Of a stretch of DNA of 64,000 nt, positions 7,898 to 53,772 are shown piece by piece. Within the stretch, counting starts at the first letter, position 1. Every line of letters starts with the position of its first letter. Made by a program: the position numbers and the translations under genes. The notes beneath the pieces were generated by a model, which had not been told where the DNA came from, did no database searches, and saw only the letters and a list, made by a program, of their open reading frames with translations. Origin of the DNA: Lentisphaerota bacterium. GTDB lineage: Bacteria; Verrucomicrobiota; Kiritimatiellia; UBA8416; JAIOPI01. The DNA is taken from the NCBI GenBank assembly GCA_021413965.1, contig JAIOPI010000021.1, forward strand, positions 220,671 through 284,670, read 5' to 3'.

Positions 7898-8808
7898 GCG
7901 TTGCCCAGGTCCAGGGTGAGTTGCCCCTGCACGACGACCTTGCGGCCGGTGGGCACATCGGGATCGGCCGTGTAGTACACCACGAACTTGACCGACGGGA
8001 ACTGCCGGGCCAGCTCGGCGCGGATGTATTCCTCCACCGCGCGCGCGTTGCCGACATCATCGTCGGAGAAGCCGACGCTGATGGGGCGTGTCAGGCCGCG
8101 CTGGTGGGAAATGCGAATCACGTGCTCCACGAAATCCTGTATGGCGAACTGCTTGCCTTCCTCCGTGCGCACGGCGGCCGCCCCGCGCTTGCCGACCATC
8201 AGCTGCTTGAACTGCGGCGACATGACGCCGTGGTATTTGTTGTGATCGAGGTAGTAGGCAATGACTTCGGCATCCGTGCCGGGATGGGCTTCCGGGGCGA
8301 AGCTGAGCATGTAGCCGCGCAGGTTGCTCAGCATCTGGTTCTTCTCGTCGTCGGTGAGGACGCGCTCGATGAAATACTCGACGGCGGCCCGAATGATGTC
8401 GGGATTGTGACCGCGCGCGGTGACGATGGCGAAGAGCCGGCCTTCGATCAGCGTCAGCTTGAAGCGCTGGAAACTGGGGGCCAGGCTGGTCTCGCCGTGC
8501 ATGACGCGGTCGATGGCTGTCTTGGTGTCGCGCAGGAAGACGTTCTGGTCCTCGTCGTCGAAATCGCGGAATTCAAGGAACGCGTTTTCCCAGTCGCCAC
8601 CGGGCGGGCGGTAATTCCGGGTGTCGTTGCGAATGACGCTGAACACGGCCGTGGACACGGCGTGGGGCACCCAGCGGCCATCCTCCGTCCGCTTTTCGAG
8701 GTGGATGTGCGTGGGCATGTGCAGGATGTTGTCATCCCAGTCGAAGATGTAATACTTCAGGTCGCGCTCGGCGACCGAGTAGTTGACGTGATGCGACAAT
8801 GTGACCAT
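7894..8808 (-). CDS. HAD-family 5'-nucleotidase-like hydrolase
   Basis: MVTLSHHVNYSVAERDLKYYIFDWDDNILHMPTH; DWDDN is the HAD DxD nucleophile motif. The start was set by residue index (M46). A 4-bp ATGA overlap couples it to the beta-helix gene. Confidence 0.75.
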   Translation of the reverse strand: MVTLSHHVNYSVAERDLKYYIFDWDDNILHMPTHIHLEKRTEDGRWVPHAVSTAVFSVIRNDTRNYRPPGGDWENAFLEFRDFDDEDQNVFLRDTKTAIDRVMHGETSLAPSFQRFKLTLIEGRLFAIVTARGHNPDIIRAAVEYFIERVLTDDEKNQMLSNLRGYMLSFAPEAHPGTDAEVIAYYLDHNKYHGVMSPQFKQLMVGKRGAAAVRTEEGKQFAIQDFVEHVIRISHQRGLTRPISVGFSDDDVGNARAVEEYIRAELARQFPSVKFVVYYTADPDVPTGRKVVVQGQLTLDLGNA

Positions 8809-8909
8809 GGAAACCCCGTGTGCAGACGCGGTAGTATAGGCGATCGGGGGATGGAGTGCAATGGGGGGGGCAAACAGGACTATCCCCAGTTTTCCACTTG
8901 CTGGTGAAA

Positions 8910-9077
8910 GCGTTGTGCGTTTGGTGCGAATGTGGCGCGCCATTTTGCCGCATCCGCGTCGTTGCTTGGAACGGCGCGGATGCAGGTCCAGCGCCGTTCC
9001 AGACGCCTAGCGGCTGCAGCAAACTGACACGCCACATTCGCATCCCCGCTGCGCGGGGCGGGCCAAACGCACAACGC
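8910..9077. repeat. Nested-palindrome element C (permuted relative of A/B)
   Basis: gcgttgtgcgtttggtgcgaatgtggcg is inverted at cgccacattcgc ... ccaaacgcacaacgc, with a 21-bp hairpin insertion (atccccgctgcgcggggcggg) and inner inverted repeats gcatccgcg / cgcggatgc. It lies just upstream of the HAD gene. Confidence 0.65.
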
Positions 9078-9406
9078 GTTGCCATCGCCCTCGCGGACTC
9101 GGGCGATTTCAGATGCGGAAAGGCACAACATCTTCTCAAACATGAACTTGGCAAGAATTCATCATGAAAACCGGGGATAGTTCTGGGGGGCGAAGGCGAA
9201 AATCCTCGCCCATGAAACCGCGAATCCGCTCAAACGTGCGTCATATTTAGCGTGGGCGCGGCTCGGCGGGACGCCTCGCCCCACCTCGGAGGCCACAGAG
9301 CGTCTCGATATCAGCAGGTGGGGCGAACGCGGTGGTCTCGTTCGGCCACAGGCGATGGGTTGATAGGGGAACAGCCCTTACGGGCTTAACTACAAGCGTT
9401 GGACAT

Positions 9407-10129
9407 ATGAATTTTGAATCTCCGCTCGTGTTCGGGACGCTGGTGCGGCGGTACAAGCGGTTTCTGGCGGACGTGGAACTGGCGGACGGCCGGATCCTGA
9501 CGGCCGTATGCCCAAACACGGGCAGCATGCGTTCGTGTGCCACGCCCGGCTGGCGTGTGGGGCTGTCGCATTCCGCGTCGCCCACGCGGAAGTATGCGTA
9601 CACGTGGGAGCTGGTGCACAACGGCGCGTGCTGGATCGGCATCAACACGGGGCGGACGAACGGCCTGGTGTGCGAGGCGATCGAGCAAGGGCTCCTGCCG
9701 GAGCTCGCCGGTTACGCGACGCGGCAACGCGAACAGGCCTACGGCCGGTCAAGCCGCATCGACATCCTGATGTCGGACGGCGCGCGGCGGTGCTACGTGG
9801 AAGTGAAGAACGTGAGCCTGCGCACCGACGATGGCGCGGCGGCGTTTCCGGATGCGGTGACGGCACGAGGGCTGAAGCACCTGGAGGAGCTGGCGCGCAT
9901 GGTGCGGGAGGGGCATCGGGCCGTGATGTGCTACGTCGTGCAGCGTGCGGACTGCACGGGCTTTCGGCTGGCGGCGGAGATCGATGCCGCCTACGCGAAG
10001 GGCTTTGCCAAGGCGCGGCGCGCGGGGGTGGAGGCGGTGGTTTATGCGGCGGACGTGAGTCCCGAAGGGATCGTGCTGGGGCGCCGGATGGAGATGCAGG
10101 GCGGGGCTTCGGAGTCCACCCCCTCCTGA
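9407..10129 (+). CDS. sfsA: Sugar fermentation stimulation protein SfsA
   Basis: MNFESPLVFGTLVRRYKRFLADVELADGRILTAVCPNTGSM is the SfsA N-terminal OB fold; the start is M26 of the ORF. Confidence 0.85.
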   Translation: MNFESPLVFGTLVRRYKRFLADVELADGRILTAVCPNTGSMRSCATPGWRVGLSHSASPTRKYAYTWELVHNGACWIGINTGRTNGLVCEAIEQGLLPELAGYATRQREQAYGRSSRIDILMSDGARRCYVEVKNVSLRTDDGAAAFPDAVTARGLKHLEELARMVREGHRAVMCYVVQRADCTGFRLAAEIDAAYAKGFAKARRAGVEAVVYAADVSPEGIVLGRRMEMQGGASESTPS

Positions 10130-39387: not shown

Positions 39388-39795
39388 ATGATTCCCGACT
39401 TACAGTCCAGCCTGCTCTGCGATGATGTGCGCCAGGAGCGCAATGGCAAGTTCATCCTGATCGGCCTCTTCGACATGATCGCCGTGCCGACCTACCCGGC
39501 CGTGTTCCAGCGCATCTGCGTGGTGAATCGCTGGTGCTGCGGCGAGGGCACCTTCCGGCAGCGCAGCCGCTTGATCAAGTCCGACGGTGACACGCTCTTG
39601 ATCGAAGGCCGCGAGGTCCCCGTCACGCTTCCGGACGCCGAAGCCACGGCTACGAGCGTTGAGTTCTTCCTGAACGTGCGTTTTGAGGCACCCGGCACCT
39701 ACTGGGTGGAAATCCTGCTTGATGGCGACATCAAGGTGCGCTACCCGCTCAAGGCGCGCCAGATTCAACCCCGGCCGGAGGGCATCAGCACATGA
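39388..39795 (+). CDS. Hypothetical cytoplasmic protein (135 aa)
   Basis: MIPDLQSSLLCDDVRQERNGKFILIGLFDM...; GC3 is high. A 4-bp overlap couples it to the downstream YjiK-like gene. Confidence 0.6.
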   Translation: MIPDLQSSLLCDDVRQERNGKFILIGLFDMIAVPTYPAVFQRICVVNRWCCGEGTFRQRSRLIKSDGDTLLIEGREVPVTLPDAEATATSVEFFLNVRFEAPGTYWVEILLDGDIKVRYPLKARQIQPRPEGIST

Positions 39796-40676
39796 ACCAT
39801 CCCACCAGTCCCGGTTCCTGTTTGGCCTTCACCATGCTGGCCCTGACGCTGCTCGCCGCGTCGTTGGCTTGCGCCGAGGCGACCGCACCCGCCCCGGCCG
39901 CCCCGCCTGCCGCTTCCGTCACCGTGACGGACTCCGTTCTTGCGGGCTATCAGCTGGTGGCGGGCCCGATCATCGTCTCCGGCGTGGAGGACGACCTGTC
40001 CGGCATTTCGTTCAACCCGGAAACCGGTACGCTATTCGCCATTCGCAACGGCGATCCCCGCGTGTTTGAACTGAACCGCGATGGCCGTGTGCTGCGCGCG
40101 TTCGATCTCGCCGGACTGGAAGATACCGAGGACCTCGCCTGCCTGGGTGATGGTCGCCTTGCCGTCATCGAAGAGCGCCGCCGCACCCTGAGCGTCTGTA
40201 CCATCCCCGACGGCACCAATGCTGCCGCTCGTCCCGCCGGAACACTGCTCATCGAGCCGAAGAAGTATGGGAACCTCGGACTGGAAGGCGTGACCTTCGA
40301 TCCCGCCGCCTCGCGTTTCTACATCGTCAAGGAGAAGGAACCGCGGCGCCTCTACGCCGTTCCGCGCACGACGCGCCTGGATGAGGAATCGGCCGTGACG
40401 CAGCCGTGGGATATCGAGGCGCGCAACTTCGGGCTGTCAGACCTGTCGGCGATCTCCTTCGTACCGGAGAATGGACACCTGCTCCTGTTGAGCGATGAAT
40501 CGCGCTGCATCGTGGAATGCACCACGGACGGCCAGGAAATCGGCCGCCTGCCGCTGACCACCGGATCAGCCGGCCTGAAGGCGGATCTGATGCAACCCGA
40601 AGGCCTCGCGCGCGACGACCGGGGCCGCCTCTACGTCACCTGCGAACCCAACCTCCTCTACATTTTCGCGAAGTAG
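39792..40676 (+). CDS. Secreted SdiA-regulated/YjiK-like beta-propeller protein
   Basis: Signal peptide MNHPTSPGSCLAFTMLALTLLAASLACAEA; LSGISFNPETGTLFAI, EDTEDLACLGDG, GLEGVTFDP and PEGLARDDRGRLYVT are propeller-blade-like repeats. Confidence 0.65.
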   Translation: MNHPTSPGSCLAFTMLALTLLAASLACAEATAPAPAAPPAASVTVTDSVLAGYQLVAGPIIVSGVEDDLSGISFNPETGTLFAIRNGDPRVFELNRDGRVLRAFDLAGLEDTEDLACLGDGRLAVIEERRRTLSVCTIPDGTNAAARPAGTLLIEPKKYGNLGLEGVTFDPAASRFYIVKEKEPRRLYAVPRTTRLDEESAVTQPWDIEARNFGLSDLSAISFVPENGHLLLLSDESRCIVECTTDGQEIGRLPLTTGSAGLKADLMQPEGLARDDRGRLYVTCEPNLLYIFAK

Positions 40677-40898: not shown

Positions 40899-43007
40899 TC
40901 ACTCGCCCTTCGTCGCCCTTTCGGGCCGTCCGTTCAACCACTGCAACTCGGGCAGGACGGCCAGCGCGTCAAAGTTCGTCGCCGTGGCTGGCACGTCGGC
41001 CAGGCGCAGGCTCCGGCAACTCGCGAGGGGAGACAGGTCCTTCACCAGCGTATCGAGCATGCCGATCCGCCGCAGTGGCAGGCCGGCCAGCGGCGCCAGA
41101 TTCCAGACGTGCGTGCAATTCATGTGCAGTTCCTCCAGCGGCATGCCCTGCAGCGGCGTCAGGTCGGTGACCGCCGTGTGCCCGATGTCGAGATAGCGCA
41201 GTGGTGCGCCTCGCAACGGGGTGAGATCGCGAACGGGGGTGGCCTCCAGGCGCAGTTCGCGCAACGGCGCGCCCGCCAGTGGCGCGAGGTCGGCCACATG
41301 GCCGCGCGCGAGGTCGAGCGTGGCGAGCGGCATGCCCCGCAAGGGCTCCAGGTCCGTCACGCCGGACCAGCTGATGTCCAGGTTCTCCAGCGGCAGCCCC
41401 GTCAGGGCCGAAAGGTCCCGGACGTGCGGGCCCGTCAGGATGGCGCCGGTCACGACGCCGTTGGTGATGGTGAAGGCGCCGCGTCCATCGTAGCCGGGAT
41501 TCGTGCGGCGCAGCGCCGCGTGCAGGGCGGCGGGATCGGCGCCGCGCGTGGGAACGCTGGCAGCCTCGCGGCGCTCCCACTCGCAAATGAACCCGTCGAT
41601 GATCGGGGACTGGCCGGCGAAGTCGTTCCACTTGCCGTACTTCGTCATCATCAGGCAATTCTCATGGCTCGCCGCATCATTCGGTTCGCCAAGGTCCCAG
41701 TTCGTGTAGACCAGCGAGGAGCCGTCGACCCACGTCCATGCGCCGGTGAGCGGATCACGGGTGGCGCCCAGCCAGACATGGCTGCGGGAGAGACCGGCGA
41801 GGAACTCGTTTTCGCCCGGGCTGTTGACGATCGCCAGCTGGCCGCCCATGCGTTCGCACTGGCGCCGCGCGTCGTCCCAGGGACGGCGATCGATGAAGAC
41901 CTTGTACGCGTGACCGCCGAAGGCGGCCACATCGCGCGGCACGGGCAACCTGCGCAGGCGCGCCGCTCCGAACAGCAGGCCGCCCAGCACGAGCGCGATG
42001 CAGGCGAGTGCCGCCAGCGCCGCGAGCGAGGAGCGGCGGCGGGGCGCGGCCGGCGACCACGCGTCAAGGGGCTCCGAGAGGACCACATCCAGCAGGGCCT
42101 GCTTGACATCCTGCGCACGCTGAAACCGCCGCGCCGGATCGCTGGCCATGGCCTTCAGCACCACGGCATCCAATGACGGGGGCGTGCCGGCGCGCTGGGA
42201 TGGTGGAGGGAAGTGCCCCACCGGCAGTTCGCCGGTGAGCATCTCGTACAGCACGACTCCGGCCGCAAAAAGGTCGGCGCGGGCATCGGCGTTGGCCGTG
42301 CGCGCATGCTGTTCGGGAGCCATGTAATAGGGCGTGCCCATGGTCTGTGCGTGCGAGGTCAGCGCCCGGTCCGGGTGTGCCTCGCCGGCCAGCTTCGCCA
42401 GCCCGAAGTCCGCGACCTTCACGTGCCCGCCGTCATTGATCAGGATGTTGGCGGGCTTGATGTCGCGATGCACGATGCCGCGCGCGTGGGCGGCCTCAAG
42501 GGCATCGCACAGCGCCAGCGCGATGTTCAGCGCCTCGCGCGGCGTGAGGCGGCGCGACGCCATGAGTCGCCGCAGATCGGTGCCCGCGACCAGCTCCATC
42601 ACGAGGTAGGGCATCCCTCCGGCCTCGCCGAAATCATGCACGGCGACGATATTGGGATGGTTCAGGCTTGCCATGGCCTGCGCCTCACGGCGAAACCGCT
42701 CGCGAAACTCGAGCGGCCCGCCGGATGGCTCGCGCAGGATCTTCAACGCCACCAGCCGGTTCAGCGCCGGCTGGCGGGCCCGGTACACGGCGCCGGCTCC
42801 GCCCTGGCCCAACAGATCGATCAGCTCGAGGTGGGGGAAGAGCACTTGAAGCGCGGTGAGCGGGGGCAGCGCGAGGGCATCAGGCGCATCGTTCGCCGCA
42901 CCGGTGTCGCCGAGCCCCTGGCGCAAGAGGCATGCCGGGCACAGGCCGGCAGGCGCATCCTCGGGGATCCGGTGCCCGCAGACCTCGCACGATGAGTCTG
43001 GCGCCAT
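40899..43007 (-). CDS. Serine/threonine protein kinase with a transmembrane segment, extracytoplasmic C-type lectin domain and leucine-rich repeats
   Basis: An N-terminal zinc-ribbon (CEVCGHRIPEDAPAGLCPAC); the kinase domain (GQGGAGAVYRA, VALK, HRDIKPANIL, DFG, APE); a TM helix (LAALAALACIALVLGGLLFGAA); a CTLD (WDDARRQCERMGGQLAIVNSPGENEFL ... WNDFAGQSPIIDGFICEW); about seven 22-aa LRRs. Confidence 0.9.
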   Translation of the reverse strand: MAPDSSCEVCGHRIPEDAPAGLCPACLLRQGLGDTGAANDAPDALALPPLTALQVLFPHLELIDLLGQGGAGAVYRARQPALNRLVALKILREPSGGPLEFRERFRREAQAMASLNHPNIVAVHDFGEAGGMPYLVMELVAGTDLRRLMASRRLTPREALNIALALCDALEAAHARGIVHRDIKPANILINDGGHVKVADFGLAKLAGEAHPDRALTSHAQTMGTPYYMAPEQHARTANADARADLFAAGVVLYEMLTGELPVGHFPPPSQRAGTPPSLDAVVLKAMASDPARRFQRAQDVKQALLDVVLSEPLDAWSPAAPRRRSSLAALAALACIALVLGGLLFGAARLRRLPVPRDVAAFGGHAYKVFIDRRPWDDARRQCERMGGQLAIVNSPGENEFLAGLSRSHVWLGATRDPLTGAWTWVDGSSLVYTNWDLGEPNDAASHENCLMMTKYGKWNDFAGQSPIIDGFICEWERREAASVPTRGADPAALHAALRRTNPGYDGRGAFTITNGVVTGAILTGPHVRDLSALTGLPLENLDISWSGVTDLEPLRGMPLATLDLARGHVADLAPLAGAPLRELRLEATPVRDLTPLRGAPLRYLDIGHTAVTDLTPLQGMPLEELHMNCTHVWNLAPLAGLPLRRIGMLDTLVKDLSPLASCRSLRLADVPATATNFDALAVLPELQWLNGRPERATKGE

Positions 43008-43727
43008 TTACGCCGCTCCCGCCAGGCAGGCCACCAGGTGCCGGAGTTCGTCGTCCACGTCGGTGGCGGTACCCACGGTGTCGGCCACCTGCTGCCGCAG
43101 GAGTTCGGCGAAGCGGCGCCGCAAGCGGTGTGCCAGCACGCGCACGTGCCCCTCGTTGATCGCGAGTCGGCCGGCAGCGTCCTCGCAGGCGCCGGCGGGG
43201 GTGTGAATGATGTGACCGCGAAGCGCGTCGAAGACGGCCTGCTTGCCGGCCTGTGTGTATTCAGCTTCCAGGATCACCAGCGTGCGTTGCAGCAACACGT
43301 TGGCCCAGCGGTGGTCGAAGTACACATCGGGAGGTGCGGGGTCCGCAGGTTCGGCGGCATAGCGCGCATCACCATCGTCGGCGTTGAGGGACATGGTTGG
43401 CACGCCACCGCCTCGCTTCTCGGCCTGGCGGCGCGTGTGCATGTCGGCCATGTGATGCTTCATCGCGCCCAGCAGAAAGGAGCGAAAGCGCCCGCGGTTC
43501 GGGTTGGCTGTCGCCAGGCTGTCGCGACGGATGAGGTCGGCGAACAGGCCCTGCGTCAGATCTTCGGCTTCATGATGGGCGCAGCCGGACCGTCGGGCGA
43601 AGGCATAGAGGGGATACCAGTAGGCCTGGCAGAGATCGGACAAGGCGGCGTGTGCCACGGTGGCTTCCTCGTCCCGCGCCCGCAGCACCACGCTCCACCG
43701 GGTGACGGCAAAATCGCCTGAGGGCAT
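43008..43727 (-). CDS. ECF-type RNA polymerase sigma factor (planctomycete/verrucomicrobial TRWS-type)
   Basis: The start is MPSGDFAVTRWSVVLRA (M142 of the ORF); sigma-2 LTQGLFADLIRR and sigma-4 regions. Its stop abuts the STK start codon. Confidence 0.8.
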   Translation of the reverse strand: MPSGDFAVTRWSVVLRARDEEATVAHAALSDLCQAYWYPLYAFARRSGCAHHEAEDLTQGLFADLIRRDSLATANPNRGRFRSFLLGAMKHHMADMHTRRQAEKRGGGVPTMSLNADDGDARYAAEPADPAPPDVYFDHRWANVLLQRTLVILEAEYTQAGKQAVFDALRGHIIHTPAGACEDAAGRLAINEGHVRVLAHRLRRRFAELLRQQVADTVGTATDVDDELRHLVACLAGAA

Positions 43728-43983
43728 GGCGCGAGTATGGCAAAGAACCCCGTCCCCGGCAACGGTGCGACCCACTGCCCAATCGCCGGCACCCCGTCGA
43801 CGCCTACCATCGGTAACATCCTTATGTAGAATTGGTTGTGCCATATTTGGGGCGATTTTATGGCCTTGCAGGCTATTTTTTGGGGCCAAAAGGGGATCTA
43901 ACGGACTGATGTTTCGCCGGTGCGCGTGGTGTGTGCTTGTAACACCTGGTTCTGGAATCCGAAGGAAGAGATGAAAGGAGACA

Positions 43984-46900
43984 GTGCCGATGCATGCAAC
44001 CGAACATGTCCGCGAGAGCCTGCTCCCAGAGGGAATGCACCGCGCATCCCTGCTCTGGTGGCTGTGGATTCTGCCGCAGGCCCTGCTCGGTCTGATCAAC
44101 TTGCGCGACTTCTTTCTTGTGAACGGGGAGATGACTCTGCCCCAAATCACGCTGGCCGGTTATGTGGCGTCCGCCGAGTTCGGATTGCTGGCGTTCGGCT
44201 GCGCGTCGCTCCTGGCGCAGCGTTTGCGCAACCGGCCGCTGTCGCTGCCTCTGTGCGGGGCCATCCTTCTGTCTCACGCGGCCTACCTGTGGGGATTCAC
44301 GGCTTGCCTCAACGATCTCCTGCCGAGTTCTGTGACGATGTGGCTGCTGCCATTGCCGCGCGTCCTCTACGCGCAGTTCGCTCTCATCATGCCGATCCTC
44401 TTCTATTCCCTGCTTCGGCTGTCGAGCTATGCCGTTCCGTGGTCGCGGCGGCAGGATCTGTGGCTGATGCTGAGTGCCATGACGGGGCCGCTCCTCCTCT
44501 GGGCCGGCGCGATCTCGCCGTGGCATCCACGCAACGCCTTCATCGCCGTTGCCCTCTGGGATGTCGCGCTCACAATCATCCTGCTGCCGCTTCTTCTCGC
44601 CGCGCGGGCCGCCTTGCATGACCGGAGGCGGGGAGCGCTCACCGCGGTAGCCACCCTGACCTGGCTCGTGCTGGTCGGCATTTCATTCGTTCGCGCGACG
44701 CCGTCGTGGCGCTGGTCCGACGGCAACGAGTGGGGCATCATCGCCGCCGTCGTCCTGCTGACGGTGGCCTTCATGCTCCACCTCCTGCGCCTGCTGGTGC
44801 GCATCGAAGCCTGGCTCGCCGACCGCGGGCCTGTGGGCCGAACACTGGTGGCCGCCCTGGTCGCGGTGGTCGGTCCGTTCGGCGGCCTGATGCTGAATCG
44901 ACACATTCCCTTTCCCGCCGACTACCAGTGCCTCTCGGTCTACATCCTGGCGGTCGTGAATGCCGCACTCCTCATGCTCCCGGCGTCGCGCTCCCGCGCG
45001 CGCGCGCTGGCAACGTGGCTCCTGCAGGCGCTGATGTTTCCCTTCACGTTCTACTTCTTCATCGTCTTCCTGCCCTTTCTGCCGCTGGCCCTGCTCGCCA
45101 TCGTGGCGGCGGGCGCGGGATTCCTGGTGCTGACGCCGACAGCCTTGTTCCTGTTCCATGGCCGGCGCATGCTGGAAGGACTGCGCCTCGCGCAGCTGGC
45201 GTGGGGGCCCCGACGCGCCAGGCTGGCTCTCGCCGGCGCCCTTGCCGCGCTGCCGCTCGCGCTCACCGCCGCAGCCCTCGTGGATCGCGCCGGCCTGCGG
45301 CAGGCCATGGACTACGTCTTTGAACCCACCTACGAAGCGGCCACCTTCCACGGCTCCCGCGCGCTGGTGCGCCGCACCCTGTTGCGCATGGTCGATGCCC
45401 GCGACGACCGTCGCCTGCCGATCCTTTCCGGCATCTACAACCACATCGTGTTCGGCGGTCTCGTACTGCCTGATGCCAAGTTGAAACAGATGCAGGATGT
45501 GTTCTTCGGCGGTCCGCTCCCGGGCGGCACCAAGCCCGGCGTGCTGGCGGAAGTCTTCGGTGAGCCTCAGCGCGGTGTCCTTGATGACATCACCGGCGGT
45601 CCGGACAGCCTGCGGGACTTCGCGGGCCCGAGCGCCACCCTCGCCGACCTCGCCTCGCATTCGGACGCCGTGCGCGGCGGCGTGCGGACCCAACTTACCC
45701 TGACCCTGACGAACACCCATTCCGCGCCAGCCGAATGCGTCACCCGCCTCCATCTGCCGGACAGCGTCCTCGTCTCCGGCCTCTGGTTGTCCATCGATGG
45801 CGAGCGCGTCGCGGGGCAGCTCTTCGAGAAACAGGCCGCCCTGTGGGTCTACCGCATGATCACCTCCAGTCGTCGCGATCCCGCGTTGCTGGCGTATACG
45901 GGGCCGCAGTCCGCGGAATTGCGCGTCTTTCCGGTCGAGCCGCACCAGACGCGCACCGTGGACATCGAGCTGTTGCATCCCCGGGGATATGCCGCCACGA
46001 TTTTCGTGGATGCACGCCCCGTGACGCTTCCCGCACTGGGCACAGCATCGGCCCCTGCCTTTACCACCGCGGGCGACGGGACGGGAACGTTCCTGATCCT
46101 CGGACGGGAGCTTCCCTCCGTCGTGCGCCAGCCGTACCTGCACCTCATCGTGGACCAATCCGCCGCCGCCACGGGCACCGCAAGCGTCGCGGATCGTGTG
46201 CGCGCCGCGGCGGCCCAGTTTCCGGGCCTCGCCACGGGTGTCGTCACGCTGGCCAACTACGAGTTCGCCGAGCCCGCGGGTACGGTGCCGCGGCCGCTGA
46301 GCGAGATTGCCGATATCCTGGAGCAGGACGCTGACGAGGCCCTGCCGCCGCGCGGGGGCTTCTGCCGTGATCGTGCCATTCAGCGGGCTCTGACACAACG
46401 CGCCGCGTTACTGGATTCGCCGGCCACGCCCGACGCTGAGCGACTCCGGGCGCCCGTGTTCGTCGTGCTGCCCTCCGTTGGCTCCGTGGTTGCAGGCGAC
46501 CCGGACCGTCTGGCGTGGTGGCAGGACTTGGCACCCGACTTCCCGTTCTTCTACGAGTGGCAGGCGAACCGCCTTGAACTCCGCAGCTTCGCCGGGCCAT
46601 CCCACCCCGGCGGGGCGCGCCCGCCGGAACTGGCCCCCGTCACCCTCGTGCGGAGTGACTCACAGTTCGCGGCGCTGCCGCCCGCAGTCGATGTATGGCA
46701 TGTGGACCGCGTCGAGGAGAACATCGCGCCGACCTGGCGGATCTACCGGCCCGACACCGGGCGCTTCACGCCGTGGCCAGCCTTGAGCCGGTTCTCGTCG
46801 GGCGCCTATCGGCGGGGGCTCGACGTGTTGGCGGAATCCCGTCGATTGCAGCACCATCCGGAGGAGACGCCCACGCGCTGGCCGGAGGTGGTGCGCGCCA

Positions 46901-47124
46901 GCAAAACCGCGGGCGTCCTGGCGCCCGCCACGGCGTGGATGGTGGTGGAGAATTCGGCGCAGTGGAAGATGCTGGCCCGCAAGGAATCCGAGAAGCTGGC
47001 GCACGCCGAGGCGCTGTCCTTCCGCACTGTGCCGGACGCGCCGGGCACATTCGCGCTGACCGCGCTGGGCCTGCTCGCCCTTGGCGTCGTCCAGGCGCGG
47101 TTACGAAAGGCTGGCGTGCCATGA
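43984..47124 (+). CDS. Large polytopic membrane protein (about 12 N-terminal TM helices and a ~600-aa extracytoplasmic domain) with a C-terminal PEP-CTERM/VPDSG-CTERM-like sorting signal
   Basis: AAAGGAGA SD; the start is GTG 43984 or ATG 43990. The C-terminus is ...FRTVPDAPGTFALTALGLLALGVVQARLRKAGVP, that is motif, TM helix and basic cluster. There is no N-terminal signal peptide. Its TGA overlaps the ATG of the next gene. Confidence 0.8.
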   Translation: MPMHATEHVRESLLPEGMHRASLLWWLWILPQALLGLINLRDFFLVNGEMTLPQITLAGYVASAEFGLLAFGCASLLAQRLRNRPLSLPLCGAILLSHAAYLWGFTACLNDLLPSSVTMWLLPLPRVLYAQFALIMPILFYSLLRLSSYAVPWSRRQDLWLMLSAMTGPLLLWAGAISPWHPRNAFIAVALWDVALTIILLPLLLAARAALHDRRRGALTAVATLTWLVLVGISFVRATPSWRWSDGNEWGIIAAVVLLTVAFMLHLLRLLVRIEAWLADRGPVGRTLVAALVAVVGPFGGLMLNRHIPFPADYQCLSVYILAVVNAALLMLPASRSRARALATWLLQALMFPFTFYFFIVFLPFLPLALLAIVAAGAGFLVLTPTALFLFHGRRMLEGLRLAQLAWGPRRARLALAGALAALPLALTAAALVDRAGLRQAMDYVFEPTYEAATFHGSRALVRRTLLRMVDARDDRRLPILSGIYNHIVFGGLVLPDAKLKQMQDVFFGGPLPGGTKPGVLAEVFGEPQRGVLDDITGGPDSLRDFAGPSATLADLASHSDAVRGGVRTQLTLTLTNTHSAPAECVTRLHLPDSVLVSGLWLSIDGERVAGQLFEKQAALWVYRMITSSRRDPALLAYTGPQSAELRVFPVEPHQTRTVDIELLHPRGYAATIFVDARPVTLPALGTASAPAFTTAGDGTGTFLILGRELPSVVRQPYLHLIVDQSAAATGTASVADRVRAAAAQFPGLATGVVTLANYEFAEPAGTVPRPLSEIADILEQDADEALPPRGGFCRDRAIQRALTQRAALLDSPATPDAERLRAPVFVVLPSVGSVVAGDPDRLAWWQDLAPDFPFFYEWQANRLELRSFAGPSHPGGARPPELAPVTLVRSDSQFAALPPAVDVWHVDRVEENIAPTWRIYRPDTGRFTPWPALSRFSSGAYRRGLDVLAESRRLQHHPEETPTRWPEVVRASKTAGVLAPATAWMVVENSAQWKMLARKESEKLAHAEALSFRTVPDAPGTFALTALGLLALGVVQARLRKAGVP

Positions 47125-47834
47125 ACTCGCTTCCGCTGATCGTCCTCACCCGGCCCGACACGTTCTGGCGCGGCGTGCGCGCGGACCGCTGGCGCGCGCA
47201 CGACCTGCTCCAACTGGCCGCCTTCACGGCGCTGGCCTGTGGCGTGTACGGCGCGATCATGGCCGGTTGGCGATCCCCGCGCCTGGCCCTCTATGTGGGC
47301 ATCAAGCTGCCGATGATGGTCTTCATGACGACCGGCACCGTTTCGGTTTTCAACTGGATGGCGGCCCTCGCGCTGGGATGCTCTTTGGGATACCGCCAAA
47401 CACTGTTCCTCGCCGCGGGCGCCATGGCCGTGTCCGGCTGGCTGCTGCTCGCGCTGGCCCCCGTCGCGCTCATGTTCATCGTGTCCAGCGTCCCCGGCTC
47501 CGGCACTGGCGCGGAACTTCGCTACGCCCACAACGTCATGCTCCTGACGCATATTGCCGTCCTGGCGGGAGCCGGCGTGGCAGGCAACGCCCGGCTGCTG
47601 GCCTGGCTGCGGACGGTGGCATCGACGCGCGCCCGCGCCCGGACCGTGTTCATCGTCTGGCTGGCCGTCTTTGCCTTTGTCGGCTGCCAGGCGTCATGGC
47701 TGCTGCGCCCCTTTGTCGGCAGCCCCTTCTATCCCGTTGTCTTCCTGCGGCCCGACGCCCTGGAGCGAAACTTCTACGAGTTCGTGCTGGGAGATGTGCT
47801 GCCTTACGTCCTTAACGGAGGAGACCGACCATGA
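47121..47834 (+). CDS. Multi-pass membrane protein (paralog 1), function unknown
   Basis: MNSLPLIVLTRPDTFWRG; about 5 TM helices. ATGA couples it on both sides. It shares IKLPMMVF, LAPVALMFIVSS and the LLRPFV motif with the next gene. Confidence 0.7.
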   Translation: MNSLPLIVLTRPDTFWRGVRADRWRAHDLLQLAAFTALACGVYGAIMAGWRSPRLALYVGIKLPMMVFMTTGTVSVFNWMAALALGCSLGYRQTLFLAAGAMAVSGWLLLALAPVALMFIVSSVPGSGTGAELRYAHNVMLLTHIAVLAGAGVAGNARLLAWLRTVASTRARARTVFIVWLAVFAFVGCQASWLLRPFVGSPFYPVVFLRPDALERNFYEFVLGDVLPYVLNGGDRP

Positions 47835-48535
47835 ATGCGACGCCTGCTGCTGCCGAATCCAAAACGCCGCCCCCGCCGCCCATGGACACATCCCCGCCGC
47901 TGACCGCGCTCTTGCGCGCCCCGGCCAGCGTGGGGGCGCGCATCGCCGCGCCGCGCGAGCTGCTCCGGCACGGACGGCACTTTCTGCTCGCCGCCATCGC
48001 GGGGCACGCCGCCTTCGGTTTGGCGGCGGGCTTGTTCGGCGGTGTGTCCGCGGGCCTGATGGGGGCGGCGAAGGTGCCGCTGATCGCGCTCGGCGCCTTC
48101 CTGCTCTGCCTGCCGAGCCTCTATGTGTTCTGCAACCTGGCGGGCGCGCCACTCTCCGGCGAACAAATCACCGTGGTGGGGCTGGCCTGCCTGGCGCTGG
48201 TCGGACTGCTACTGGCTGCGCTCGCGCCAGTGGTCTGGCTCTTCGCGGTGTCGACGTCCAGCCTGCCGTTTGTGGTTGTGCTGGATTTGCTGGCGTGCGG
48301 CATCGGTCTCGTCTACGCCTTCCGCCTGCCCGTTCATCTCCGTCAGGCGGCGGGCCTGCACCGCATGGGTGGCCTTCGCGTCTGGCTGCTGGTGCTGACC
48401 GTGACCTCGCTGCAGATGCTGACGTTCCTGCGGCCCGTGATCGCGGCGCCGGTCGACGGCTGGTGGACGCCGAAGAAGCAATTCTTCCTGAAGCATTTCA
48501 CGACCTGCTTCGAAGAGAGTGCGCACCGGCATTGA
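47831..48535 (+). CDS. Multi-pass membrane protein (paralog 2), function unknown
   Basis: MNATPAAAESKTPPPPPMDTS ...; AKVPLIALGAFLL, LAPVVWLFAVSTS and TFLRPVIA are collinear with the previous gene, indicating a tandem duplication. Confidence 0.7.
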   Translation: MNATPAAAESKTPPPPPMDTSPPLTALLRAPASVGARIAAPRELLRHGRHFLLAAIAGHAAFGLAAGLFGGVSAGLMGAAKVPLIALGAFLLCLPSLYVFCNLAGAPLSGEQITVVGLACLALVGLLLAALAPVVWLFAVSTSSLPFVVVLDLLACGIGLVYAFRLPVHLRQAAGLHRMGGLRVWLLVLTVTSLQMLTFLRPVIAAPVDGWWTPKKQFFLKHFTTCFEESAHRH

Positions 48536-48692
48536 TGGACACGGCTCGCCGGGACGGCTCGCCCCACCACGGTTCCGTGGGGACGCGCAAACCGGGCGCT
48601 CAGGCCGGGACGCTTTGCCGTTGTGCCATCCGGCACAGGTGCTAGAATTGCGCGAGGGAACGGGGTTACACATTCGAGGAGGAATCCACGCC

Positions 48693-49433
48693 ATGAATAT
48701 CAGTCGACGAGACGTGCTTCGCACCACCGCATTGGGATCCCTGGCCGTCCTGGCGGGCCAGCGAATTATCACGGGTACGGCTTGGGCGGTGCCGGCAGAA
48801 GGTGCGCCGGCCGCGGGGACCGACTATTGCACGCTGCCGGCGTTGCCCTACGCATTCGATGCGCTCGAGCCTCACCTCGACGCGCAGACGATGCAGATCC
48901 ACCACGACAAGCACCATGCCGCCTACGTCAAGGGGCTGAACGCCGCCGTGGCCAGCCAGCCCGACCTGGGCTCACGCACGCCCGAGGACCTGGTTGCCCA
49001 TTGGCATGACCTTCCGGCTGCCGTGCAGACCGCCGTGCGCAACCATGGCGGCGGCCACGTGAACCATTCCATGTTCTGGACCTCGCTGTCGGCCAGGGGT
49101 GGGGCGCCCGCGGGCGAGTTTGCCCAGGCGGTGGACAAGACGTTCGGCAGCCTGGCGGCACTTCGGGAGCAACTGACGAAAGCCGCCACGGGCGTGTTCG
49201 GAAGCGGGTGGGCCTGGTTGTGCGTGGGCGCCGGCGGGGTGCTTGCCGTGGAGTCCACGCCGAACCAGGACAATCCACTGACGGCTGGTCACAAGCCGCT
49301 GCTCGGCCTCGACGTCTGGGAGCACGCGTACTACCTGAAGTACCAGAACCGCCGGGCCGATTACCTGACCGCGATCATGCATGTGATCGACTGGGATGTC
49401 GTCTCCGCCCGCTTTGCGGCAACGCCGGCCTGA
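48693..49433 (+). CDS. Fe/Mn superoxide dismutase with a Tat signal peptide
   Basis: GAGGAGG SD; MNISRRDVLRTTALGSLAVLAG is a twin-arginine signal; HHDKHHAAY, DVWEHAYYLKYQNRRADY. Confidence 0.9.
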   Translation: MNISRRDVLRTTALGSLAVLAGQRIITGTAWAVPAEGAPAAGTDYCTLPALPYAFDALEPHLDAQTMQIHHDKHHAAYVKGLNAAVASQPDLGSRTPEDLVAHWHDLPAAVQTAVRNHGGGHVNHSMFWTSLSARGGAPAGEFAQAVDKTFGSLAALREQLTKAATGVFGSGWAWLCVGAGGVLAVESTPNQDNPLTAGHKPLLGLDVWEHAYYLKYQNRRADYLTAIMHVIDWDVVSARFAATPA

Positions 49434-49541: not shown

Positions 49542-50606
49542 ATGTCCATTCGAGACACGATGAACCCGGTTGCACGCCGGTTGCCGCTCGCGGGCGGCCG
49601 GCCTGCGGCGGGCGCCACCGCGTCCGGCGTGCAGGACCGCTTCGGCCGCACGATCAACTACCTGCGCGTGTCGCTCACGGACATGTGCAACCTGCGCTGT
49701 GTCTACTGCATGCCCGCCGATATGAAATTCCGCCCGCCCGCGGAATTGATGCAGGATGCCGAGCTGCTGCGGTTGATCGAGCTGTTTGGCGCGCTGGGCT
49801 TCCGCAAGATCCGCTACACGGGAGGCGAGCCCACCCTGCGCGACAACCTGCCCGGGCTCGTCTGCCGCGTGGCGCAGTTCCCCGGCATTGAAGCGCAGGC
49901 GATGACCACCAACGGCCTCCTGCTGGACCAGCTGGCCGCACCGTTGAAGGAGGCCGGGCTGCAGCGCGTCAACATCAGCATCGATTCGCTGGATCCGCAG
50001 AAATTCCGCCGCATGACCCGCTGGGGTAATCTGCGCGACGTCCTCGCGGGCATCCAGGCGGCTGAACGCGTGGGCTTCGAGATCAAGCTGAATGCCGTGG
50101 TCGTCCGCGGTTTCAACGACCAGGCCGATGCCGTGGAACTCGCGCGGCTGACGCGGGAGCACGACTGGCAGGTCCGCTACATCGAGATCATGCCCTTCGG
50201 CGGCATCCATGAGTTCCAGCGTGGCCACATCGTCTCCGAGGATGAACTGCGCGCCACGATCGGCAGCGCCCTGGGCCCGCTCGAGCTGCAGGACGACGGC
50301 AAGCTCGACGGCGAGGCGCGCATCTTCCGCCTGCGCGGCGCGCGCGGCACCCTGGGGTTCATCAGCTCGGTGACCAAGCCGTTCTGCGCCGGCTGCAACC
50401 GTGCCCGGCTCACCGCCGACGGCAAGCTGCGCCTGTGCCTGCTGCGGGACAAGGAAGTCGATCTGCTCACGCCGCTGCGTGCCGGAGCCGCGGCGCCGGA
50501 CCTGGAGGCCTTGATCCGGGCCAACATCTGGGACAAGCCCTGGGGGCACGGCCTCGAGCAAAACCAGTTCGCCACCAACCGCACGATGTCGGAAATCGGC
50601 GGCTAG
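49542..50606 (+). CDS. moaA: GTP 3',8-cyclase (radical SAM)
   Basis: CNLRCVYCMP is the radical-SAM cluster motif; C-terminal CAGCNRARLTADGKLRLCL. Confidence 0.9.
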   Translation: MSIRDTMNPVARRLPLAGGRPAAGATASGVQDRFGRTINYLRVSLTDMCNLRCVYCMPADMKFRPPAELMQDAELLRLIELFGALGFRKIRYTGGEPTLRDNLPGLVCRVAQFPGIEAQAMTTNGLLLDQLAAPLKEAGLQRVNISIDSLDPQKFRRMTRWGNLRDVLAGIQAAERVGFEIKLNAVVVRGFNDQADAVELARLTREHDWQVRYIEIMPFGGIHEFQRGHIVSEDELRATIGSALGPLELQDDGKLDGEARIFRLRGARGTLGFISSVTKPFCAGCNRARLTADGKLRLCLLRDKEVDLLTPLRAGAAAPDLEALIRANIWDKPWGHGLEQNQFATNRTMSEIGG

Positions 50607-50726
50607 GGGCCGCCGCGGGTGAAGCACCAACGTGCGAGGGCACGCCAGAACACATCGAACGGCCTGGGGCATCGGGGCATGCCTGCGAGTCTCCGCGATG
50701 CTCCGGCATATGGTACCGTCTTCGCC

Positions 50727-51968
50727 ATGACCACCGTTTCTGAAGCAGAAGCCCTGATCCTTGCCGCGGTGCCCCAGGCCGCGGCGGTTGATGTTCCGCT
50801 CGCCGATGCGCGCGGCGCGGTGCTGCGCGAGCCCCTCACGGCCGATCGCCCCTTCCCCCCCTACAACCGTGTGGCCATGGACGGGATTGCGCTGTCGCAC
50901 GCCACGTGGGCCGGCGGCGGGCGCGCCTTTCCCGTGGCAGGCGTGGTGCGTGCCGGCGAAGCGCCGCGCGCACTGCCGGATCCCTCGCAGTGCCTCGAAA
51001 TCATGACCGGTGCCGTGCTGCCGCCGGGCTGCGACTGCGTGGTGCCCGTCGAGCAACTTGTCGTCGCGGGCGGCGTGGCCACGCTGCGCGACGGGGTGGC
51101 TGTGGATCCCATGCAGCATGTGCATCGCCTGGGTTCCGATCGACCTGCCGGCGCCACTCTGCTGAACGCCGGCACGATGCTCTGGGGGCCGGCATGCGCC
51201 GTGGCCGCCTCTGTCGGTAACACGCACCTGCGCGTGTCGTCATCCCCCCGCATCACGATCGTGAGCACCGGCGACGAACTGGTTCCGGTGGAGGCCACGC
51301 CGCTGCCTCACCAGGTGCGCCGTTCCAATGCGTACGCGCTGGGCGCCGCGCTGGCGACGGCAGGCTTCACCGACATCCGCACCGCGCACGCGCCCGACGA
51401 TCCGGCGGCGATCGCCCGCACGCTGCGCGCGGCGCTGGCCGACAGCCGGTTCATCGTGCTGTCCGGCGGCGTGTCGGAGGGCCGCTTCGACCACGTACCC
51501 GGCGTGCTCGCCACGCTGGGTGTCGTCCAGCGCCTGCATAAGGTCAGCCAGCGTCCCGGCAAGCCGCTATGGTTTGGGATCGGCCCCGACGGGCAGGCCG
51601 TCTTCGGGCTGCCGGGCAATCCGGTTTCAGCCGCCGTCTGCCTGTACCGGTACGTCCTGCCCGCATTGTGGCGGCATGTCGGGGCCGGCCTGCGATCCGC
51701 GGACGCGCGCCCGCGGGCCGTGCTGACGGTGGAGGTGCGATTCAAGAAGCCGTTGACCTTGTTTCAACCGGTGCGGGTGTGCGAGCATACAGACGGACGG
51801 CGCCTCGCCACGCCGGTTCCCATGAACGGGTCCGGCGACCTGGCGGGACTGGCCGTCAGCGATGGCGTGCTGGAGCTTCCCGACGGCGGCCGCACCTTCG
51901 CCGCGGGCGAAGCGCACGTGATCTGGCTGTGGGCCGATCCGTATGGCATGCTGATGCAGACCGGTTGA
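50727..51968 (+). CDS. moeA: Molybdopterin molybdotransferase
   Basis: NRVAMDGIAL, TGDEL, GGVSEGRFDHV (MPT-binding), LPGNPVSA. Confidence 0.9.
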   Translation: MTTVSEAEALILAAVPQAAAVDVPLADARGAVLREPLTADRPFPPYNRVAMDGIALSHATWAGGGRAFPVAGVVRAGEAPRALPDPSQCLEIMTGAVLPPGCDCVVPVEQLVVAGGVATLRDGVAVDPMQHVHRLGSDRPAGATLLNAGTMLWGPACAVAASVGNTHLRVSSSPRITIVSTGDELVPVEATPLPHQVRRSNAYALGAALATAGFTDIRTAHAPDDPAAIARTLRAALADSRFIVLSGGVSEGRFDHVPGVLATLGVVQRLHKVSQRPGKPLWFGIGPDGQAVFGLPGNPVSAAVCLYRYVLPALWRHVGAGLRSADARPRAVLTVEVRFKKPLTLFQPVRVCEHTDGRRLATPVPMNGSGDLAGLAVSDGVLELPDGGRTFAAGEAHVIWLWADPYGMLMQTG

Positions 51969-52043
51969 TCGACGTGTCGCGGCGGCAGGCTTTCGCCCCT
52001 GCTGCCGAATGAGAGGGCATGAACGTCTGCCCCGCGAGGATGT

Positions 52044-52535
52044 ATGAAATCGAAAGCCAAGCTCTCCCACATCGATGCCGCCAACCAGCCGCGAATGGTG
52101 GATGTCGGCGCCAAGGCCTACACGCGGCGTGAGGCCACGGCGCGGTCGGTGGTGGTGGCGCCGCCCGCAGTCATGCGCCTGCTGGCCGATGGGGAACTGC
52201 GCGGCCCCAAGGGGCCCGTCTTTCAAACGGCGATCATCGCCGGGACGCAGGCCGTCAAGCGCACCAGCGACCTGATTCCGTTCTGCCATCCGCTGCCCAT
52301 CGAGCATTGCCGCATCACGATTGCGGTGAACGCGGAGCAGGAAATCGAAATTGAGTGCACGGTGGGCGTCGAGCACAAGACGGGCGTGGAAATGGAAGCC
52401 CTGGTGGGCGCGTCGGTGGCCGCGCTCACGGTTTACGACATGTGCAAGGCGGTCTCGCACGATATCCGCATCCGCGAGACGCGCCTGCTTCGCAAGCGCG
52501 GTGGCATGCGCGATGTAACAGCGGCGTCAAGCTGA
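52044..52535 (+). CDS. moaC: Cyclic pyranopterin monophosphate synthase
   Basis: [25 protein letters not shown] ... [24 protein letters not shown]. Confidence 0.9.
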
Positions 52536-52554
52536 CGAGCGGGAAGCACGTGGT

Positions 52555-53772
52555 ATGAAGCCGTACTTCCATCCCTTTGAACTGGCGGTCTGCGGCTACT
52601 CGGGCTCGGGCAAGACCACCCTGCTCACGCGCCTGATCGCACACCTGGCGCCGACCCTGCGCCTGGGCTATGCCAAGCACAGCGGCCACGCGTTCACGCT
52701 CGACCAAGCCGGCAAGGACACGGCCCGCGCCCGCGACGCCGGCGCCGTTCGGATCTTCATCACCAACGACCGCGCCACGGCGCTGACCACCGGGGAGCCG
52801 CTGGACGTTGTGCAGCGCCGCACGATGTTCGACGATTGCGATGCGGTCCTGGTGGAAGGATGGAAGTCGAGTCCGTTGCCGCGGTTGGTGATGATCGATG
52901 CGCAGGGCGCGATCCTGGAGCCGGACACGGCGGATGCGCACGCGTCAGACCGGACGGCTCGGCGGGACGCCTCGCCCCACCAGTCTGAACAGGCAAAAGG
53001 GCGGGGCGAGCCGTCCCGGCGAGCCGCGCAGGACGAGGCCGGCCCCGTCATTGGGTGGGTGGGGGCTCATGCGATCCGCCCTGCCGCCATCCCGGGCGAC
53101 GCGCCGTACGTTCAGCGCGACGACATCGGGGGCATCGCGGCGCTGGTCACACGCCATTTTGACGGCCTGGCGGGCGGCACCCCGCTCTACGGGCTGATCC
53201 TGGCCGGCGGCCGAAGCACGCGCATGCAACGCGACAAGGCCCTGCTTGCCTATCGCGGCCGCACCCAGGTGGAGCACATGTACGATCTCGTGGGGCGCCG
53301 CTGCGCGAGCACCTTCGTATCGGCGCGAGCCGGGCAGTGGGCCGCGGCGCCGTTTGCCGCGCTGCCCCAGATCCACGACACCATCCAGGAATGCGGGCCG
53401 ACGGGGGGCATCCTGTCCGCCATGCAGGCGCACCCGGAGGCGGCGTGGCTGGTCGTGGCCTGCGATCTGCCTTATCTCGACGGCGCCACGCTGGATGCAC
53501 TCATCCGCCAGCGCGCGCCGCTGAAGGTGGCCACGGCCTACACGAGTTCAAGCGACGGCCTGCCGGAACCGCTCTGCGCGATTTACGAACCCCGCGCCCG
53601 CAGCCGGCTGTTCCAATTCGTCGCCATCGGGTACACTTGTCCGCGCAAGATGCTGATCAACTCCAATGCGCGCCTGCTGGCGTTGGCCAATCCGCGCGCG
53701 CTGGACAACGTGAACCGGCCCGAGGAGTATGAGCGGGCCATGCGGGAATTGGGCGAGTCTGGCAAAGCCTGA
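52555..53772 (+). CDS. mobA: Fused MobB (GTP-binding) - MobA (molybdenum cofactor guanylyltransferase)
   Basis: N-terminus AVCGYSGSGKTTLLTRLI is the MobB P-loop; C-terminus LILAGGRSTRMQRDKALL, LVVACDLPYL is MobA. It is a single 405-aa ORF. Confidence 0.85.
   Translation: MKPYFHPFELAVCGYSGSGKTTLLTRLIAHLAPTLRLGYAKHSGHAFTLDQAGKDTARARDAGAVRIFITNDRATALTTGEPLDVVQRRTMFDDCDAVLVEGWKSSPLPRLVMIDAQGAILEPDTADAHASDRTARRDASPHQSEQAKGRGEPSRRAAQDEAGPVIGWVGAHAIRPAAIPGDAPYVQRDDIGGIAALVTRHFDGLAGGTPLYGLILAGGRSTRMQRDKALLAYRGRTQVEHMYDLVGRRCASTFVSARAGQWAAAPFAALPQIHDTIQECGPTGGILSAMQAHPEAAWLVVACDLPYLDGATLDALIRQRAPLKVATAYTSSSDGLPEPLCAIYEPRARSRLFQFVAIGYTCPRKMLINSNARLLALANPRALDNVNRPEEYERAMRELGESGKA

Follow-up and report, generated by a model that had tools for sequence, protein, structure and literature searches.

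A membrane protein of the MSEP-CTERM family is encoded with an unnamed pair of five-helix membrane proteins, and without an adjacent exosortase, in a Lentisphaerota bacterium

How is a large membrane protein with a C-terminal sorting signal handled if no exosortase is encoded beside it, and what do the two small membrane proteins that are encoded after it do? These questions are raised by an operon in a Lentisphaerota bacterium. (We analyzed 64,000 nucleotides of contig JAIOPI010000021.1, positions 220,671 to 284,670; we call this stretch the window and number positions within it.) The first gene of the operon (43984..47124, plus strand) encodes a protein of 1046 amino acids, which we call BIG and which belongs to the MSEP-CTERM family (TIGR04286). 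The next two genes, on the same strand, encode the paralogous membrane proteins A (47121..47834, 237 amino acids) and B (47831..48535, 234 amino acids). An earlier, sequence-only reading of this DNA had described the two small genes as ATGA-coupled, and both overlaps are real: the stop of BIG overlaps the start of A at 47121-47124, and the stop of A overlaps the start of B at 47831-47834. The family of BIG is already known. What is not ordinary is that the adjacent exosortase is absent and that a widespread but unnamed pair of membrane proteins is in the operon. (L-numbers refer to the loci that we compared, and P-numbers to proteins.)

BIG scores 328.1 bits against TIGR04286 ("MSEP-CTERM sorting domain-containing protein"; E = 1.1e-97), where the cutoff is 150 bits. 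NCBI's annotation of the identical protein has the MSEP-CTERM name already. (Our version begins with a GTG; NCBI's version has 1044 amino acids, two fewer, and would begin at the ATG at 43990.) BIG also has the architecture of this family, with hydrophobic N-terminal helices followed by a VIT domain (amino acids 565-662, at 45676..45969 on the plus strand; PF08487, E = 4.4e-11, 43.4 bits with a cutoff of 26.5). We conclude that BIG is a true member of the MSEP-CTERM family. It matches two other families, TIGR04477 and TIGR02921, through the VIT domain only (44 and 24 bits). When we searched the sequences in the PDB with a profile of the BIG family, we found a weak match of the VIT domain to ITIH4 and ITIH1, and nothing else.

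The tail of BIG reads VPDAPGTFALTALGLLALGVVQARLRKAGVP. Its extreme C-terminus (47029..47124, plus strand) is a tripartite sorting signal, made up of the motif VPDAPG, the hydrophobic helix TFALTALGLLALGVVQA, and the basic cluster RLRK. The motif is not the MSEP that gives the family its name, and none of the generic tail models is matched above its cutoff (14.7 bits against VPDSG-CTERM, PF18205, with a cutoff of 25). Of the CTERM models that had been suggested as a check on BIG, TIGR04286 is matched above its cutoff. The orthologues of BIG end with VPEPGT, a helix, and RRQR or RRRQR. Because the orthologues carry VPEPGT tails, the tail of BIG is, judged from sequence, a variant of PEP-CTERM, and the earlier reading of it as a PEP-CTERM-type sorting signal stands. 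It is the only tail of its type in the window.

From hydropathy and positive-inside counting, BIG has about 13 N-terminal membrane helices (amino acids 22-433), and its N-terminus is in the cytoplasm. The soluble region (amino acids 434-1021, or about 590 amino acids) is placed in the periplasm. The last helix (amino acids 1022-1038) runs inward, which leaves RLRK in the cytoplasm. A signal of the PEP-CTERM type requires just such a topology. About 12 helices and a soluble domain of about 600 amino acids had been read from the sequence before, and this layout is confirmed. The 13th helix probably acts as the export signal for the soluble domain, in which case no signal peptide is needed. The sequence-only reading had taken it to be undescribed that a protein with no signal peptide carries a sorting tail. 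This is not so: what defines the TIGR04286 family is a polytopic N-terminus together with a VIT domain and a tail of the PEP-CTERM type, and TIGR04477 and TIGR02921 likewise combine a VIT domain with a sorting tail. The missing signal peptide is thus no paradox.

We did not find an exosortase in the window. None of its polytopic open reading frames (ORFs) match an exosortase model. Also, a profile built from four XrtK-like neighbors of BIG homologues has no match in the window or in any locus with A and B. Across these 64 kb, then, no canonical exosortase is nearby, in support of the earlier reading. In particular, BIG lacks an adjacent, dedicated exosortase K (XrtK); the gene upstream of BIG encodes a sigma factor of the extracytoplasmic function (ECF) type and is divergent.

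Among about ten loci with homologues of BIG, we found two kinds of neighbors. In L047, L048, L050, and L051, whose large proteins are 32-37% identical to BIG, the large gene overlaps, at its start, a gene for a small XrtK-like exosortase. The exosortases of L047 and L048 score above the cutoff of the signature model TIGR04178 and match the XrtK model (TIGR04287) with E = 1e-9 and 2e-12, respectively. The neighbor in L051 carries PF09721, and the neighbor in L050 is a protein of 187 amino acids with the same PGCSGADF motif. A and B are encoded downstream of BIG in a clade with 51-100% identity, which comprises the window, L006/L007, L049, and two contigs that we know from gene tables only (and whose genes agree in size and order). 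No locus has both the exosortase and A-B, and L045 and L046 have neither one adjoining. We also looked for a distinct flavor of tail in the XrtK-linked and the A-B-linked homologues, but there is no clear difference, and all of the tails are PEP-like.

Some of these loci have other features. L006 (55% identical) has two genes between the MSEP-CTERM gene and A (8861-10004; also in L007), which encode a membrane protein of 298 amino acids and an ORF of 55 amino acids. Neither of these matches any family. We considered the 298-amino-acid protein as the missing exosortase, but it has no match to exosortases. L006 also has a URO-D gene between the sigma factor gene and the operon. In L046, the gene for the MSEP-CTERM homologue (6751-9422, minus strand) is flanked by an ECF sigma factor gene and by a gene for a vWA/YfbK_C protein of 702 amino acids, which is a second type of linkage to a sigma factor.

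We then turn to A and B themselves. They are not significantly similar by plain BLASTP (E = 2.4). Comparing profiles of 30 homologues of A and 32 homologues of B with hhalign, however, gave a probability of 97% and E = 5e-11 over 178 columns, and by this profile similarity A and B are ancient paralogues. The AlphaFold2 models of A and B have average confidence (predicted local distance difference test) of 82 and 88 and predicted template modeling scores of 0.80 and 0.82, respectively. The two models agree in layout: five long membrane helices are preceded by two short N-terminal helices and followed by a loop and a C-terminal helix. These results bear out the sequence-only reading, which had described A and B as paralogues of about 235 amino acids with five membrane helices and without a family that could be named. 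Indeed, neither protein matches any family in Pfam or NCBIfam, and fold searches found no relative among solved structures.

The family is nevertheless large. Among 1.84 billion representatives, the profile of B matches 2048 clusters (defined at 50% identity) with E <= 1e-3, and 245 of these have E <= 1e-30. The B family is mostly found in the PVC group (Planctomycetes, Verrucomicrobia and relatives). The named sources of homologues are Verrucomicrobiota, Kiritimatiellia, Lentisphaerae/Victivallales, Planctomycetes, and a few others. In B, Lys81, Pro95, Pro133, Phe138, Gln195, and Pro202 are nearly invariant. In A, the residues that are kept even in distant fusion proteins are Trp50-Arg51, Lys62, Pro64, Gln190, Arg196-Pro197, Arg210, Asp212, and Glu220. 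By the positive-inside rule, the best-conserved polar residues of both proteins (a Lys in helix 2, and a Gln and an Arg-Pro at the end of helix 5) would face the periplasm.

A and B are a module. In species-representative genomes, B comes immediately after A in about 34 of 37 loci, and P0310 (491 amino acids) and P0325 (507 amino acids) are fusions of A and B in a single polypeptide. Because of the tandem order, the translational coupling, and the natural fusions, we propose that A and B form a pseudo-symmetric heterodimer of 5+5 helices in the inner membrane. No other neighbor is conserved across the 37 genome loci. Most copies of A-B are encoded on their own, so this is a free-standing module. 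Several variations may be mentioned here. P0256 and P0337 are B proteins with a C-terminal extension of about 280 amino acids, which matches DUF4440 in P0256 and has no match in Pfam in P0337. In L001 (9693-10004) and L005 (9699-9920), A is directly preceded by a small ORF whose product ends in a hydrophobic helix and a basic cluster, and the one in L001 overlaps the start of A. We considered such anchor-like ORFs as a feature of the module, but they are inconsistent across loci. And in the metagenomic locus L003, a gene for a Yip1-domain protein (PF04893; 11471-12103) lies directly after A-B.

Is A-B linked to proteins like BIG? We found two more loci in which A-B adjoins a polytopic VIT protein. 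In L026 the VIT protein is encoded upstream of A, and in L040 it is encoded downstream of B. Both proteins have a canonical PEP-CTERM tail (VPEPETWAL...) and score above the cutoff of the PEP-CTERM model (TIGR02595). They are closest to TIGR04477 (127 and 120 bits, E = 6e-37 and 9e-35), albeit below its cutoff of 250 bits. Among the larger flanking ORFs of L026 and L040, which we scanned against NCBIfam, there is no match to an exosortase. On a tree of A proteins, the clade of the window, L026, and L040 are three separate branches. If there are around 3 such genes per 4,000, then a rough estimate is that about 0.06 adjacencies would be expected by chance in 40 lineages. Three separate juxtapositions with a rare type of protein far exceed this estimate, which suggests that A-B is functionally linked to VIT/PEP-CTERM membrane proteins. 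In other words, the linkage of A-B to CTERM proteins that had been envisaged is not general, as most loci lack one, but it recurs in three separate lineages.

The operon lies beside two regulatory genes on the minus strand. One of them (43008..43727) encodes an ECF-type sigma factor that begins with MPSGDFAVTRWSVV. It matches Sigma70_r2 (E = 7e-6), Sigma70_ECF (E = 4e-3), and, below the cutoff, TIGR02937 (E = 3e-7). Its N-terminal TRWSVV motif and a weak match to PF07638 point to the Planctomycete-type ECF groups. The TAA stop codon of this gene directly abuts the ATG of the other gene (40899..43007), which encodes a Hanks-type Ser/Thr kinase of 702 amino acids. The kinase has a Pkinase domain (E = 1e-48), one membrane helix (amino acids 328-346), and an extracytoplasmic part with a C-type lectin domain (Lectin_C, E = 3e-19) and leucine-rich repeats (LRR_4, E = 3e-5). 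The sigma factor and kinase pair, divergent from an operon of three genes on the plus strand, is thus laid out as the sequence-only reading had it. (The range that it gave, 43008-48535, omits the kinase gene that its title names, and the divergent intergenic region, at 43728..43983, has 256 bp and not 257.) The pair is conserved beside the operon in L006, with the kinase orthologue at the same relative position.

Within the intergenic region there is a promoter-like motif, TGTAACA-N15-CGAAG (43938..43964, plus strand), which is the only exact match in the window. The motif ends 20 nt upstream of BIG's start codon and is followed by a ribosome-binding site (AAGGAG, 43975-43980, plus strand). 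The same motif with the same spacing is upstream of the orthologue in L006 (5717-5743), and CGTAACA-N15-CGAAG, again with the same spacing, is upstream of the orthologue in L049 (983-1008). So GTAACA-N15-CGAAG is present in all three loci of the clade with readable sequence. There is no match to a sigma-70-type promoter in 43600-48900. A -35 element that contains AAC and a -10 element that contains CG, about 16 nt apart, fit ECF promoters. As for how the sigma factor might be controlled, sigma factors of group ECF43 are activated by a neighboring Hanks kinase, and their sigma-2.2 region has the consensus QTTA (PMC13147305). By analogy, a similar mechanism of activation is plausible here.

Our preferred explanation, to which we give a probability of about 40%, is that A-B is a free-standing complex of the inner membrane that is a partner of VIT/PEP-CTERM proteins, and that cleavage of the tail, if it occurs, is due to an exosortase that is encoded elsewhere. 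The operon would be for proteins of the cell envelope and would be read from a conserved ECF-type promoter beside the sigma factor and Hanks kinase pair. The lectin and leucine-rich-repeat ectodomain of the kinase may sense a ligand outside the cell, and the kinase may then activate the sigma factor, which would read the GTAACA-N15-CGAAG promoter. The last of BIG's approximately 13 N-terminal helices would export the VIT-containing domain of about 590 amino acids to the periplasm, and the PEP-CTERM-type helix would re-anchor the C-terminus, with the basic cluster in the cytoplasm. A-B would be a membrane partner that docks, positions, or hands over the membrane-embedded parts of VIT/PEP-CTERM proteins. 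A-B would not be the protease, and the tail, if it is cleaved, would be cut by an exosortase from elsewhere in the genome.

Several observations weigh against this explanation. About 30 of the 37 loci with A-B have no gene for a VIT or PEP-CTERM protein within up to 10 kb, so the core function of the pair cannot depend on BIG. Near the A-B loci, there are no PEP-CTERM tails besides those of the VIT proteins. The heterodimer and the way it would sit in the membrane are proposed, as is the exosortase from elsewhere; the 64-kb window is the part of this organism's genome that we searched for one. The putative promoter is assigned from its conservation and geometry, and in L049, the upstream gene does not encode a sigma factor. 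Finally, the sigma-2.2 segment of the sigma factor (EAEDLTQG) keeps acidic residues where ECF43 has QTTA, albeit with a Thr present, and because of these acidic residues, control of the sigma factor by phosphorylation is uncertain.

These observations raise the question of whether A-B and BIG are only coincidental or co-expressed neighbors. A-B might perform a general task in the membrane, such as transport, lipid handling, or scaffolding, while a general exosortase encoded elsewhere handles BIG, and the adjacency would reflect the shuffling of operons among envelope genes. We regard this as somewhat less likely than our preferred explanation. Most A-B loci lack a VIT/PEP-CTERM neighbor and have widely varying surroundings, two extra genes separate BIG from A in L006, and L045 and L046 illustrate that the BIG family can exist without an adjacent partner. 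Yet the adjacency occurs in three separate lineages of A, with two different VIT families and in both gene orders, against the roughly 0.06 adjacencies that chance would give, and overlaps of 4 bp couple the genes in the window's clade. The opposite view is that the A-B heterodimer is itself the machine that sorts or processes PEP-CTERM tails, as a non-homologous replacement for XrtK. What makes this attractive is the complementary pattern, with XrtK-like genes in L047, L048, L050, and L051 and A-B in the window, L006, L049, and the two gene-table contigs, and with no XrtK-like ORF in the window or any A-B locus. The pattern rests on about ten loci, though, and the A-B-linked ones are a single clade. 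Similarly, the proteins of L026 and L040 resemble the targets of XrtN, yet the larger flanking ORFs that we scanned have no match to exosortases. A PEP motif would sit on the periplasmic side, and positive-inside reasoning also places the conserved residues of A and B there.

The proteins themselves do not look like exosortases. Neither A nor B matches an exosortase in NCBIfam at E <= 1, hhalign gives a probability of just 0.2-0.4% against an XrtK-like protein, and Pfam scans of 62 members of the A and B families found no exosortase family (we considered TIGR04178/PF09721). Exosortases have a nearly invariant Cys, Arg, and His, which are the proposed catalytic triad (Haft 2023, 10.1101/2023.06.07.544157). 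A and B lack this signature: they have no conserved pair of Cys and His, nor is any nucleophile invariant. Conservation in B is 96% for Cys93 (which is Thr in 8 of 238 sequences), 96% for Arg201, and 86% for His222; in the model, Cys93 is in the cytoplasm-facing part of helix 2, on a different face of the membrane from Arg201 and His222. The fusion proteins have other residues in place of Cys189 and His137 of A. Also, a dedicated system would be expected to have its substrate next to it, and most A-B pairs do not. On sequence grounds, we set aside the idea, raised in the sequence-only reading, that A and B are sortase-like, and we consider a replacement of XrtK to be unlikely. The bolder form of this proposal, in which A-B is a new class of sorting-signal machine that is unrelated to exosortases, replaces XrtK here, and serves substrates in the PVC group in trans elsewhere, is at least as improbable. 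The sequence-only reading had also offered a Yip1-like scaffold. A and B would then be distant bacterial relatives of the five-helix Yip1/Yif1 proteins, which they resemble in having five helices, a cytoplasmic N-terminus, and two paralogues that act as a pair. One homologue of A (P0022) has a stored Pfam match to PF04893, one homologue of B matches at E = 0.034, and L003 has its Yip1-domain gene after A-B. But Pfam's Yip1 family (PF04893) matches 0 of 30 A homologues and just that 1 of 32 B homologues (below the threshold), and either profile against the Yip1-domain protein of L003 gives an hhalign probability under 1%. No solved Yip1 structure was among the results of the fold searches with A and B. 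This relationship lacks statistical support, and we view it as the least probable of these alternatives.

Near the locus, a DUF6941 protein (PF22091, E = 3e-27) and a protein with an SdiA-regulated domain (PF06977, E = 4e-66) are encoded at 39388-40676 on the plus strand. Their genes overlap by 4 bp and point toward the 3' end of the kinase gene. Downstream of B, an ORF at about 48690-49433 (plus strand) has a twin-arginine-like N-terminus (MNISRRDVLRT), which suggests an exported enzyme. Reading its translation by eye, it appears to be similar to Fe/Mn superoxide dismutases. Also by eye, the translations in 49542-53772 include MoaA-, MoeA-, MoaC-, and MobB-MobA-like ORFs.

What does this locus add? 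In the clade of BIG, the adjacent enzyme is absent, and instead, a membrane pair from a family of over 2,000 clusters, without a model in Pfam or NCBIfam, is encoded downstream. If the link is functional, then it is a first handle on the function of A-B and a testable case of the exchange of partners in protein sorting. Even without a functional link, the locus shows that for the MSEP-CTERM family, having a sorting tail and no signal peptide is nothing unusual.

How does this operon compare to known systems? The regulatory pair is like the ECF43 systems (EcfP/PknT and EcfK/PknS; PMC13147305) in that the sigma factor gene abuts a gene for a transmembrane Ser/Thr kinase with a sensory ectodomain, with no anti-sigma factor gene in between. 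It differs in the acidic residues that are retained in EAEDLTQG, and the TRWSVV motif and the weak match to PF07638 point to Planctomycete-type groups. Like A-B, Yip1/Yif1 pairs consist of two paralogues that act together, each with five membrane helices and its N-terminus in the cytoplasm, but neither sequences nor profiles show A and B to be significantly similar to them. BIG shares the tripartite C-terminal signal with the general PEP-CTERM system, but BIG is a polytopic membrane protein, and its tail is below the cutoffs of the generic models. (Both VPDSG and PEP-CTERM variants have been described in BIG's bacterial group.) In the general system, with exosortases such as EpsH and XrtA, typical substrates have signal peptides and are secreted, and a single enzyme handles many substrates (Haft 2006, PMC1569441; Haft 2023, 10.1101/2023.06.07.544157).

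The targets of XrtN (TIGR04477) and the PEP-CTERM integral membrane proteins of TIGR02921 are more similar, as they too combine a membrane domain with a VIT domain and end in a PEP-CTERM tail. However, BIG matches these families via the VIT domain only, and the proteins from L026 and L040 are below the cutoff of TIGR04477. To our knowledge, all that is known of dedicated exosortase systems comes from comparative genomics, and in the literature collection that we searched, we found no text on MSEP-CTERM, XrtK, or XrtN. The closest system is MSEP-CTERM/XrtK (TIGR04286/TIGR04287). BIG is above the cutoff for this family and has its polytopic N-terminus, its VIT domain, and its tail of motif, helix, and basic cluster. 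Unlike that system, the window has no XrtK-like gene, and the tail has VPDAPG (or VPEPGT in the orthologues) and not MSEP. Instead, the operon of BIG includes two unrelated five-helix paralogues, with an ECF sigma factor and kinase pair upstream.

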